Shown piece after piece: positions 56,545-59,322 of a DNA stretch of 64,000 bases. This DNA is from Ostreococcus lucimarinus (Eukaryota): NCBI GenBank assembly GCA_000092065.1, contig CP000600.1; one strand, 5' to 3'. Numbering within the stretch: the stretch's first letter is position 1; the number at the start of each line of letters is the position of its first letter. Made by a program: the position numbers and the translations under genes. The notes beneath the pieces were generated by a model. That model searched no databases and was not told where the DNA came from. It saw nothing but the letters and a program-made list of their open reading frames with translations.

Positions 56545-56713
56545 ATGGGCGCCGCGGCGTCTGACAACCGACGAGTCGAGTCGTTTCATTCACCGACGCA
56601 CTTAGTTTTTAGCAGATTGTCAGTGTTAGAACTGAACTGAACCTAAAACAGTATCGAAGACTTGCGCGTAGTCGTTGTTCGTTAGAGTACACCGTTATTT
56701 GATTACATAAATG

Positions 56714-58018
56714 TCACAAGAGGCGAGCGATTTCGTCAGTCTCGAACTCGGGCGCTCGTCGAAGGCGACGTATGACGATGCCGACGATGGTGACAGCGAC
56801 CACACAAAAAAGTGAAGCGCGCGACACGTCTAGGTCACGAGTGCTGACTACGATTGAAGCTTTCGAGCCCAGACGTGCGCTGACACTCGATGTCGGCGAC
56901 GCTTCGCCGTTGAGCTCTCTTTGGAGCTCGGCGAGTTGTTGCTGCAAGCCGGGCATCGAAGGGTGGTCGGGCTTGCGTCTGCCGATCTTTCTGGTGAGCC
57001 GGCGAATATCCCGCTTAAGTTTAGCGGCCTGATCCGGCGTCAAAGCCGGCGGCGAGGACACGGGCTCGGACGCCGGACTCGGACTCGATGTCGGCGACGC
57101 TTCGCCGTTGAGCTCTCTTTGGAGCTCGGCGAGTTGTTGCTGCAAGCCGGGCATCGAAGGGTGGTCCGGCTTGCGTCTGCCGATCTTTCTGGTGAGCCGG
57201 CGAATATCCCGCTTAAGTTTAGCGGCCTGATCCGGCGTCAAAGCCGGCGGCGAGGACACGGGCTCGGGCGCCGGACTCGGACTCTCCACCGGAGTCGACG
57301 ACGGATGTGCGTCTGGAGTCGCCGTTGGCGGCGGGTTCGGTGGCGGATTCGGCGGCGGATTCGGCGGCGGACTCGGCGGCGGCGGGTTCGGCGGCGGATT
57401 CGGCGGCGGACTCGGCGGCGGCGGACTCGGCGTCCCCCCGTTCACCGTGGACGTCACCGACGACGTCACCGTGGACGACACCGACCCCTCACCCAACGCC
57501 GCGCCGACGCCCTTCGTCCACGCCCTCGCGCCCAGCGCCCGCGTCGCCTCTCCCCATCGCTCGATCGCGCCTCCTTCACCCGTTCCGCACGTCCCGATCG
57601 CGAGCGCCAAGCACGCGCACGCCCCCGCCGCGCGCCACCGTCTCGCGCGCGTCGTCCCTCGCCTCCGCGCGTCGTCCCTCGCGTCGTCGCTCGCGCTTCC
57701 GCGCGACGTCCGCGTCGCCCCGTACGTCCCTCGCGTCGTCGTCGCGTCGTCCTCGCTCGCGCGCGCGCGTCCCGTCGCGCGCGTCATCCCTCGCGCGTCC
57801 CGCGCGTCCCGCGCGTCCCGCGAACGCGTCGTCCCGAAGTCGTCCCGAACGCGCGCGCGGTCGGCGTCGAGCGGCGGCGCGACGGCGGTCGGGGTCGGCG
57901 TCGCGCGCGCCCGGCGCGACGCGCGCGCGGCGCCGTGACGGGGTCTAAGCGTTAGACGCAACTCCAATTCGTAGCCCGCGCGCGTGTATTTCGTAACACC
58001 ATACACCGATCGGCACAT
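56714..58018 (-). CDS. proline-rich repeat protein with a C-terminal transmembrane anchor (HRGP-like; start uncertain)
   Basis: PPPSPPPNPPPNPPPPSPPPNPPPNPPPNPP block, two identical 66-aa repeats (PVSSPPALTPDQAAKLKRDIRRLTRKIGRRKPDHPSMPGLQQQLAELQRELNGEASPTSS) and a C-terminal TM (LFCVVAVTIVGIVI). The N-terminal 75 codons of the ORF are low complexity, and the real start is probably an internal Met. Confidence 0.6.
   Translation of the reverse strand: MCRSVYGVTKYTRAGYELELRLTLRPRHGAARASRRARATPTPTAVAPPLDADRARVRDDFGTTRSRDARDARDARGMTRATGRARASEDDATTTRGTYGATRTSRGSASDDARDDARRRGTTRARRWRAAGACACLALAIGTCGTGEGGAIERWGEATRALGARAWTKGVGAALGEGSVSSTVTSSVTSTVNGGTPSPPPPSPPPNPPPNPPPPSPPPNPPPNPPPNPPPTATPDAHPSSTPVESPSPAPEPVSSPPALTPDQAAKLKRDIRRLTRKIGRRKPDHPSMPGLQQQLAELQRELNGEASPTSSPSPASEPVSSPPALTPDQAAKLKRDIRRLTRKIGRRKPDHPSMPGLQQQLAELQRELNGEASPTSSVSARLGSKASIVVSTRDLDVSRASLFCVVAVTIVGIVIRRLRRAPEFETDEIARLL
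56887..57280. repeat. near-perfect 2 x 197-bp direct tandem duplication inside the proline-rich gene
   Basis: Units starting at about 56887 and about 57084 differ at only 2-3 positions (seen directly); this produces the duplicated 66-aa peptide. Confidence 0.9.
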
Positions 58019-58053
58019 CGCGCGGCGACGGCGTCCGACGCGCGTTCGCGACG

Positions 58054-59322
58054 ATGGCGAGCGAGCGCGAGGGATTGTTGCGAACGAACGAACGCGCGAC
58101 GACGACGACGGCGAACGCGCGCGACGACGACGAGGACGCGGCGACGCGCGCGGCGTGGACGAGGACGCGCGACGACGAGGATGGCGACGAGGGTGTTACG
58201 CGCGCGAGGGCGAGGACGCGGACGCGCGCGTCGCGCGCGCGGGCGTTCGGGATGGCGTTCGTCGCGTTGTGCGCGCTCGTGGGGGGGCTAGCGCTCGTGA
58301 AAGCGGAACGAGCGCGCGGGGCGGGGAGGATCGATCGCGCCGCGCTCGGCGGCGCGGCGAGGGCGCAAAACGCGCCCGGACACGTGCCGGGATTGGCCGA
58401 ACACGTCGAGAGCGTGACGCGGAGCACGAAGTTTCGGGCGATTACGTTCTGTAATAAGTCGTATTGGACGTTCGCGCACGCCTTGCTGGAGTCGATGAAG
58501 GCTGTGGCGCCGTCCATCGTGGACTTTTGGACAGTCATCGTTCCGGACGAGGCGACGAAGGAGTTCATCGAAAAGGAAACGGCGGGGGCGGGGCACAAGA
58601 TTGACGTCTACGTCGACGATGACTTACGCAAGCAAGTCGCGAAGTTTGCCGAAGCGAGCAAAGAAGAGCTCAAGTCGATGCTGTCGTGGCGGCGCGTGCA
58701 CGCGGTGCAAACGCTCGTGGACAACGACTACACGGTGATGTTCCTCGAGCCCGACGCGGTGATGCAAAAGAACCCTTTGCAGCTCATCCACGACCAGCTC
58801 ACGACGAACGATCTCGTGCTCGGGGCGGACTACGGCTTAGGGACGACGGCGCGCAAGCACGCGAACACAAAGGTGATCGTGGCCAAGCCTTCCGTGCAAG
58901 GGAAGAAGCTGCTCAACGTCTGGCAGCGCGCCGAACAGACGTACTCGGGCGATAAGGCGGAGGTTGGGTTCCTTCTTAACGACGTCATCCCGCACATCGA
59001 CGCCCTGACGGCAAAGATACAAATCCTGGACCAGACCGTCGTCGGAAACTACCTCACCCACCACGAAAAAGCCGGGCAAGCCATCGTCACGGGGATGGGT
59101 TGCGACAACGTCGATTTCAAAATAAACTTTATGGCGCAGTTGTTGCGACACGTCCAACCGGACGATCCGAACGCCCCGAAGAGCGCGATAGATTACGAAG
59201 GCGTCTCCGCGGGATGCGACTACGCGGGCCGAGAGAAAGTCTTCAAAATTTCGAACGAGTTCGCAAAGAAGAAGATGGCGGCAAAGTTGGGATCGAACAA
59301 GGCGACTTCGAGCGATGAGTAA
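58054..59322 (+). CDS. type-II membrane nucleotide-diphospho-sugar transferase (Nucleotid_trans / GT77-like glycosyltransferase)
   Basis: Cytoplasmic tail, signal anchor (AFGMAFVALCALVGGLALV), then FRAITFCNKSYWTFAHALLESM...WTVIVPDE, D-rich VYVDDD, SWRRVHAVQTLVDNDYTVMFLEPDAVM resembling PF03407-type plant/algal arabinosyl/xylosyltransferases; family assignment is from memory. Confidence 0.55.
   Translation: MASEREGLLRTNERATTTTANARDDDEDAATRAAWTRTRDDEDGDEGVTRARARTRTRASRARAFGMAFVALCALVGGLALVKAERARGAGRIDRAALGGAARAQNAPGHVPGLAEHVESVTRSTKFRAITFCNKSYWTFAHALLESMKAVAPSIVDFWTVIVPDEATKEFIEKETAGAGHKIDVYVDDDLRKQVAKFAEASKEELKSMLSWRRVHAVQTLVDNDYTVMFLEPDAVMQKNPLQLIHDQLTTNDLVLGADYGLGTTARKHANTKVIVAKPSVQGKKLLNVWQRAEQTYSGDKAEVGFLLNDVIPHIDALTAKIQILDQTVVGNYLTHHEKAGQAIVTGMGCDNVDFKINFMAQLLRHVQPDDPNAPKSAIDYEGVSAGCDYAGREKVFKISNEFAKKKMAAKLGSNKATSSDE

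Follow-up and report, generated by a model that had tools for sequence, protein, structure and literature searches.

We analyzed a 64,000-nucleotide stretch of the Ostreococcus lucimarinus genome (contig CP000600.1, assembly GCA_000092065.1; "the window" below means this whole stretch), in which a minus-strand gene contains a tandem repeat. The repeat has a period of 198 bp, that is 66 codons, and is present in two copies, in frame with the sense of the gene. An earlier reading of the letters alone (the sequence-only reading) had placed a 197-bp duplication at 56887-57280. The duplication itself holds, and the period has to be corrected by one base: comparing the sequence with itself gave 2 mismatches at offset 198 versus 145-152 at offsets 196, 197 and 199. 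Tandem Repeats Finder (TRF) reported the array at 56885-57284 (period 198, 2.0 copies, 99% matches, score 786), well ahead of any other tandem repeat of the window; only three arrays in the window reached a score of 150, all of them within the repeat gene. The two copies, joined by the sense-strand junction k-mer CCGACATCGAGTCCGAGTCCGGCG, differ at two bases, within the two to three first estimated, and at one amino acid: 56969 G versus 57167 C is synonymous (Pro), and 57070 A versus 57268 G exchanges Ser and Pro in a linker. Most population contigs of the species have one identical unit in common, relative to which the first copy (module 1) carries a private synonymous change, 57167 C, and the second (module 2) a private non-synonymous one, 57070 A (Pro to Ser). 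With one private change in each copy, the window strain is out of the ordinary; in L002 and L007, the two-copy contigs in which both copies were compared, the two units match each other 100%. Dyad symmetry was not significant, with a single trivial 15-nt inverted repeat, and an Rfam search of the whole window identified no family.

The repeat belongs to what appears, judging from the sequence, to be a real, intronless and lineage-restricted gene for a fast-evolving, proline-rich, predicted membrane protein. The most likely coding sequence (CDS) starts at the ATG at 57787 (Table 1), because the sequence upstream of about 57943 is full of indels among related contigs and because the divergent neighbouring gene begins at 58054. 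Population contigs were scored as distinct contigs, L004 and L022 being the same. This ATG and its frame are retained in 17 of the 18 that are ungapped, always with the same tail at the end; the intact open reading frames (ORFs) measure 274, 278, 282, 348 or 357 aa and differ by in-frame indels only. The 66-aa peptide first described as duplicated within a coding region is therefore borne out as such. The guanine-plus-cytosine (GC) content at the three codon positions over the repeats (0.65/0.55/0.73; GC3 > GC1 > GC2) follows the pattern of the neighbouring genes. From its N-terminus, the protein comprises an R/A/T-rich region, a hydrophobic segment, a short conserved stretch, an [S/N]PPP run, the two modules, a juxtamembrane stretch, a transmembrane (TM) helix and a tail. 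The window has a GC content of about 62% and tightly packed genes, with intergenic gaps of roughly 70-270 bp. The neighbours encode a PPR protein, a PF03407 (GT77) glycosyltransferase, a MATH-BTB protein and an aminotransferase, and PLATZ is also among these plant-lineage neighbours. Taken with the marine metagenome sources of the related contigs, GC content, gene spacing and neighbours are suggestive of a picoalga of the Mamiellales type. The GT77 gene is divergent, lying head-to-head with the repeat gene at 266 bp from its ATG.

Table 1. Features of the repeat gene and its surroundings (positions in the window; aa, amino acids; KD, Kyte-Doolittle hydropathy; AF2, AlphaFold2; pLDDT, predicted local distance difference test)
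Feature	Position	Strand	Residues	Remarks
Longest ORF with repeat	56714-58018	-		from the ORF list; part upstream of the proposed ATG not conserved
Most likely CDS	56714-57787	-	357 aa + stop	ATG at 57787; frame conservation
N-terminal hydrophobic segment	57584-57631	-	53-68	AAGACACLALAIGTCG; preceded by RRWR; mean KD 1.78
Proline-rich run, [S/N]PPP(P)	57326-57427	-	121-154	12-nt/39-nt tandem repeat (TRF, direct-repeat family D1)
Match extension, 4 nt	57281-57284	-		sense GAGT; microhomology at array boundary
Repeat copy, module 1	57083-57280	-	170-235	PSPAPEPVSS...EASPTSS
Helix A, module 1	57176-57235	-	185-204	PDQAAKLKRDIRRLTRKIGR; AF2, pLDDT 85-96
Helix B, module 1	57110-57154	-	212-226	MPGLQQQLAELQREL; AF2
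Repeat copy, module 2	56885-57082	-	236-301	PSPASEPVSS...EASPTSS
Helix A counterpart, module 2	56978-57037	-		
Helix B counterpart, module 2	56912-56956	-		
C-terminal TM helix	56771-56818	-	324-339	ASLFCVVAVTIVGIVI; mean KD 2.83
Tail	56717-56770	-	18 aa	RRLRRAPEFETDEIARLL; ExxxLL motif; stop codon 56714-56716
GT77 gene	58054-59322	+	422 aa	PF03407, E = 3.4e-34; N-terminal hydrophobic anchor
Antisense ORF	56921-57955	+	344 aa	arginine-rich; runs through the repeats

A single-sequence AF2 model folds each unit into a helix of 20 residues, a loop of 7 and a helix of 15, with pLDDT values of 85-96. The linkers, which are S/P-rich in each module just as the sequence-only reading had it, fall below 50, and both they and the N-terminus are disordered in the model. 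The two helices carry Leu/Ile at i, i+4, i+7 and i+11, and the hydrophobic moment of helix A (0.81) was exceeded by none of 2000 shuffles. Each module is predicted to be an antiparallel alpha-hairpin held together by Leu/Ile stripes at a/d positions. Towards the C-terminus, hydropathy reaches 2.33 over 19 residues and the modelled helix spans residues 324-344; RRLRR follows directly, so that the protein has a single C-proximal TM helix with adjoining positive residues. The ExxxLL of the tail is reminiscent of adaptor motifs of the acidic dileucine type, and the hydrophobic segment near the N-terminus is a candidate signal peptide or signal anchor.

We searched for relatives of the gene in protein, structure and DNA collections. 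A word-indexed search of 5.8 billion proteins returned two one-module variants from the same species (P0031 and P0032) and one protein of 575 aa (P0033), and an exhaustive search of 1.84 billion representatives with a hidden Markov model (HMM) profile of module plus tail gave 3 matches, all from the window species and the sister species described below. In Pfam, queried with the ORF and with a single unit, the best match reached 18.9 bits against a cut-off of 27; the sub-threshold candidates DUF7553, DUF7341, Ribosomal_S15 and ENOX1 were rejected, and DUF285 was not matched even at E <= 10. Foldseek found no significant fold match to the AF2 model in the PDB (best E-value 0.58), and no relative was detected among the viral contigs of IMG/VR. 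The peptide was not matched in the supplements of an extensin survey that includes Ostreococcus lucimarinus (PMC4769139), a non-match that the PDF formatting makes uninformative. A scan of metagenome DNA with a unit-internal 26-mer added three further contigs only, all single-copy; the related contigs all come from marine metagenomes. The locus has undergone rearrangement in more distant relatives, whose GT77 is 62-65% identical; next to GT77 we found there an unrelated gene for a secreted protein of 342 aa and nothing like the repeat gene. By sequence and modelled fold, the gene and its module fall outside any described family.

The 575-aa protein P0033 is encoded on a 440-kb contig (L011) with the gene order of the window: aminotransferase, MATH-BTB, GT77, target, PPR and ion channel. 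Because the order is the same, we take P0033 as the positional ortholog in a sister species, where the pairing with GT77, absent from the more distant species, is kept. Its array consists of six units of 207 bp (69 codons), of which units 2-5 are identical in DNA, unit 6 differs by 1 nt, and the edge unit 1 is divergent and carries a 3-nt deletion. AF2 models all six as the same helix-loop-helix (pLDDT 75-91, linkers <50). A second contig of the sister species, L016, has five units and flanks 99.85% identical to those of L011. In both contigs isolated 1-nt indels break the frame, which we read as long-read consensus errors. The two species (window and L011) share both the copy-copy junction (CCGACATCGAGT|CCGAGTC in the sense strand) and the 3' boundary (GAG(T/C)|GTCAGCGCACG), and the units themselves are 75% identical in nucleotides and 53% in amino acids between species. 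Within arrays, the divergent edge copy of the sister species aside, differences amount to 0-2 per ~200 nt. Shared boundaries, diverged units and near-identity within arrays together indicate that the array is older than the species split and has been homogenised and resized by unequal exchange. Between the recent duplication and the concerted evolution offered as alternatives by the sequence-only reading, these comparisons favour concerted evolution of an old array over a merely fresh duplication.

It could be argued instead that each species very recently and independently duplicated a single ancestral module, from 1 to 2 in O. lucimarinus and from 1 to 5-6 in its sister, the near-identity of copies simply reflecting their youth. 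In the window species, contigs with a single copy are indeed the most frequent (11 contigs), the 4-nt microhomology GAGT at the boundary could seed the same slippage repeatedly, and the synonymous divergence (dS) of the unit between species, 0.19, is close to that of the flanks, as expected from one inherited orthologous copy. Two observations make this scenario unlikely. The junction and the 3' boundary agree nucleotide for nucleotide, which would require the 4-nt microhomology to be reused by chance, and a divergent edge copy next to identical inner copies, as seen in the sister array, is the classic signature of ongoing unequal exchange.

The hairpin modules are not the only repeats of the gene. 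In O. lucimarinus, the proline run is made up of SPPPP, SPPP, SPPP and five NPPP(P), and the [S/N]PPP repeat (57326-57433) varies in length among population contigs, with gaps of ~27 to 39 nt that leave the ORFs intact. The window carries the longest allele among these contigs, and the run of the sister species is more than twice as long. The sister protein contains at least 14 SPPP motifs in an SPPP/NPPP run much longer than that of the window, and between this run and the hairpin modules it has about 290 aa of PNAYP(S/T)TP...TPTPVPGES repeats in 42-45-bp units (L011 5455-6316 and L016 3970-4875), a third independently expanding repeat of the gene. The window protein has a single degenerate copy of this type of unit, PDAHPSSTPVES, at ~57281-57316. 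The Pro-rich run of the window protein and its vicinity contain no Tyr, and no YXY was found in the sister species, PNAYP repeats included.

We then scored copy number at the hairpin array. Besides the window, two full copies are present in L002, L007, L021 and L025, and the copy junction is present, followed by an N gap or a contig end, in L003, L005, L027, L029 and L030. One copy is spanned in 11 contigs (L004, L006, L008, L009, L012, L013, L014, L015, L023, L024 and L026), and 7 end or have a gap at the repeat without information on the junction (L001, L010, L028 and L031-L034). No contig of the window species has three copies. Of the 32 distinct population contigs, 12 end or have an N gap exactly at the repeat, bearing out the warning that this region would trouble assemblers. 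Three k=31 Logan contigs (L032-L034) end exactly 30 nt into the unit, as expected at a graph branch made by a copy junction. Judged by their left flanks, two-copy contigs belong to at least three haplotype backgrounds, and for each there is also a near-identical contig with one copy, a distribution that could equally have arisen by recurrent gain and loss, by recombination or by assembly collapse. That copy number may differ between strains, also suggested at the outset, is seen as 5 versus 6 units in the sister species; in the window species 1 versus 2 is seen as well, with collapse as a possible cause, and the sister-species difference is the better supported of the two.

The one weakly held idea in this connection, that the second copy is a false expansion in the window assembly, has the eleven one-copy contigs of the same species in its favour and is extremely improbable, given two full copies in four other assemblies and the junction in five more (so that the duplication is genuine, as first supposed), the Logan contigs that stop as at a junction branch, and a private substitution in each window copy, which is not something an assembler would invent.

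Rates of change differ sharply between the unit and its surroundings. Between the two species, the repeat unit has a non-synonymous divergence (dN) of 0.30 and a dS of 0.19 (dN/dS 1.6), versus a dN of 0.035-0.049 and a dS of 0.14-0.16 (dN/dS 0.23-0.31) for three flanking genes (Fisher p = 1e-5 for the difference in dN/dS). The TM and tail region has a dN of 0.10 and a dS of 0.18 (dN/dS 0.56), the N-terminal region a dN/dS of ~1.3. The C-terminal region is 83% identical, and the tail, identical at 17 of 18 residues, is the most conserved part of the protein. Within the hairpin, 8 of 9 helix core positions are identical between species and 11 of 29 non-core positions. A unit of the window has a net charge of +4, one of the sister species a net charge of -3. 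An allele found in L006 (3066-3263) and L013 (9619-9816) has five substitutions within 16 nt (window 57157-57172), all non-synonymous and all in the inter-helix loop (K37E, P38N, H40D, S42A), and a net charge of +1. This allele was seen in single-copy contigs only, and P0031 represents an intermediate form (RRENDHP). Since charge differs among alleles and species, the basic character is a lineage-specific state rather than a conserved property. Of the basic amphipathic helix AAKLKRDIRRLTRKIGRRK pointed out by the sequence-only reading, the helix survives, by its modelled confidence and a hydrophobic moment above nearly all shuffles, and a conserved basic charge does not. What is conserved, as far as the aligned sequences go, is the Leu/Ile stripe of the two-helix hairpin.

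Our preferred interpretation, which we consider likely, is that the repeat is a coding minisatellite of autonomous modules in a lineage-restricted gene, resized and homogenised by recombination, and that the product is a putative surface stalk protein. Each unit would encode one autonomous 66-aa module, formed by the S/P-rich linker, the 20-residue amphipathic helix, the 7-residue loop and the 15-residue helix, and the modules would be strung like beads between the [S/N]PPP rod and the C-terminal TM anchor. In-register units may recombine by unequal crossing-over, gene conversion or replication slippage. Such recombination would keep the copies within a genome near-identical while altering their number (1-2 in the window species, 5-6 in the sister species), and surface positions and the loop of the unit would meanwhile diverge fast from one species to the other. 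In the proposed topology, the N-terminal segment acts as signal or anchor, the ectodomain lies outside and the tail is in the cytosol. The function suggested is that of a protein stalk on the cell surface, variable in length and charge and probably O-glycosylated; its rapid change may reflect interaction with an external partner. A surface stalk is proposed because the conserved N-terminal segment, the SPPP/NPPP runs, the strong TM helix with RRLRR and the highly conserved short tail fit it.

Several observations weigh against this interpretation. Two concern topology: the N-terminal segment is weak and lies about 50 residues from the sole usable ATG, an unusual place for a signal peptide, and the TM helix is only 18 residues from the C-terminus, which is compatible with a tail-anchored protein. 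Others concern the gene model and the copies. On L007, a 560-kb Joint Genome Institute (JGI) contig, a 2-nt insertion equivalent to window position 57433 breaks the frame, and a collection of 15 billion proteins contains neither the 357-aa nor the 434-aa protein as an exact match. Contigs assembled with megahit that span the repeat all have one copy, and SPAdes-type scaffolds mostly have two or are broken, so the one-copy contigs may be the result of collapse by short-read assemblers. Finally, the dN/dS of the unit (1.6) is not significantly greater than 1 (binomial p = 0.18), and relaxed constraint at the surface therefore explains it as well as positive selection does.

Regarding topology, the protein might be tail-anchored and face the cytosol, for example as a coiled-coil tether on the surface of an organelle, with the proline run as a cytosolic linker or ligand site. 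Besides the position of the single strong TM helix and the weakness of the N-terminal segment, this is in line with there being no N-glycosylation sequon visible in the ectodomain sequence. By the positive-inside rule, however, positive residues lie on the cytosolic side of a TM helix, and RRLRR directly after the helix thus puts the tail in the cytosol; a cytosolic position is also the only one in which the conservation of the tail and its ExxxLL make sense. Conserved as well is the N-terminal hydrophobic segment, whose equivalent in the sister species (AVGTTAALAALAIGACAVVG), in the same position, is longer (20 aa) with a mean KD of 1.95. SPPP/NPPP runs, moreover, are typical of secreted hydroxyproline-rich glycoproteins (PMC4769139). 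Altogether we consider a cytosol-facing protein the less likely reading and prefer the surface stalk.

As for the gene model, the L007 insertion adds CC to a run of six C in the window, and the resulting frame break reflects either an error of the consensus in a homopolymer or pseudogenisation of this allele. One might go further and regard the array as a non-coding GC-rich minisatellite, the minus-strand ORF being a by-product of base composition: high-GC DNA yields long spurious ORFs, the 344-aa antisense ORF overlaps, no Pfam family matches, homologs occur only in two species and the N-terminal region shows little constraint by its dN/dS. We think this very unlikely, as the units of both species (198 and 207) have lengths divisible by three, length variants keep the ORF in 17 of the 18 ungapped contigs, the stop position is held despite an adjacent 15-nt indel, hydrophobic heptad positions are kept while the surface changes, TM helix and tail have a dN/dS of 0.56, and the single-sequence AF2 models are confident for the modules of both species.

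Concerning the copies, de Bruijn graphs of a pure two-copy population should break megahit contigs and not collapse them. The one-copy contigs are therefore probably real single-copy alleles that dominate those samples, and a real 1-versus-2 polymorphism in the window species is, in our judgement, somewhat more plausible than collapse.

A number of further variants surround the gene. In the intergenic or promoter region between it and GT77 (57943-58025), contigs otherwise 99-100% identical show extreme indel variation; L002 and L004, for instance, have an insertion of ~170 bp with many CGATCG repeats. Just upstream of the ATG at 57787, L006 has an 18-nt in-frame deletion (57792-57809) in a CG-rich 9-nt repeat (CGCGCGTCC x3), which would lie in the 5' leader if the ATG assignment is right. 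At the other end, a 15-nt indel (56701-56715) lies immediately 3' of the stop codon and overlaps it; in alleles without it the stop changes from TGA to TAA with the codon position unchanged, and L003 has a further insertion of ~23 nt beside the stop codon. On the opposite strand, metagenome gene callers often chose the antisense ORF or fragments of it, and the true gene is therefore frequently mis-annotated.

Intragenic coding minisatellites are well known from surface proteins, such as the FLO and ALS adhesins of yeasts, the streptococcal alpha-C and Rib proteins (with DNA-identical repeats of ~240 bp) and the variable-number tandem repeats (VNTRs) of mucins. The O. lucimarinus gene shares with them long in-frame units, near-100% DNA identity within the array, a copy number that differs between species and probably between strains, a unit that diverges between species, C-terminal membrane or wall anchoring (here predicted) and repeats that would serve as modular spacers. 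In contrast to those systems, the host is a GC-rich marine eukaryote and the neighbouring genes are of the plant lineage, the module is a two-helix hairpin and not beta-rich, the arrays are short (1-6 units), and there is no sequence relationship. We also considered the palindromic amphipathic repeat coding elements (PARCEL; 25-aa or 75-nt units with dyad symmetry that match DUF285/TIGR02167, PMC2996958), which are likewise tandem amphipathic repeats in membrane-associated proteins of microbes; identity with them was rejected, given the 66-aa unit, the lack of a DUF285 match and the lack of significant dyad symmetry.

A second likeness is to the chimeric extensin-like hydroxyproline-rich glycoproteins of green algae and plants, which carry SP3-5 motifs and include PERK-type proteins with an extensin ectodomain and a TM helix (PMC4769139). 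The window protein has Ser-Pro3/4 motifs N-terminal to its TM helix (three, and many more in the sister species), and its gene is paired with a GT77 gene. Unlike those proteins, it has no Tyr cross-linking motif (YXY), kinase or other known domain, and its motifs are mostly NPPP, not SPPP. The extensin arabinosyltransferases RRA1-3 and XEG113 belong to GT77, and hydroxyproline (Hyp)-Ara3 in Ostreococcus tauri has been reported as an unpublished observation (both PMC8012813). The adjacent GT77 gene may hint at Hyp arabinosylation of the putative rod, as a lead only.

Coding minisatellites that evolve in concert are an ordinary phenomenon, and what is new is the previously undescribed gene with its module. 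In practice, the locus breaks or collapses short-read assemblies. Given such mis-assembly and the absence of the exact sequence from the protein collection, the gene is likely to be mis-modelled or missed in annotations. From an evolutionary point of view, the locus is a compact and well-documented example of copies evolving in concert within a eukaryotic genome that is very small and streamlined; it combines an old array, identical copies, rapid divergence of surface and loop positions and a charge reversed between the sister species. A more far-reaching idea, which we regard as a long shot, is that the product is a lineage-specific hypervariable surface glycoprotein whose ectodomain length is set by the [S/N]PPP, PNAYP..TPVPGES and hairpin repeats, and whose length and charge (+4 to -3 per module) are tuned by selection exerted by an external partner, for instance as a prasinovirus attachment factor or decoy or in gamete or cell recognition. 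The host receptors of prasinoviruses are still unidentified, and surface glycans have been implicated in resistance (PMC5371798). If surface-exposed, the protein would be one of very few candidate hypervariable surface molecules in an algal group whose virus receptors and mating recognition molecules are unknown, and its rapid change in length, loop and charge would, if this is true, suit a molecule exposed to viruses or partner cells.

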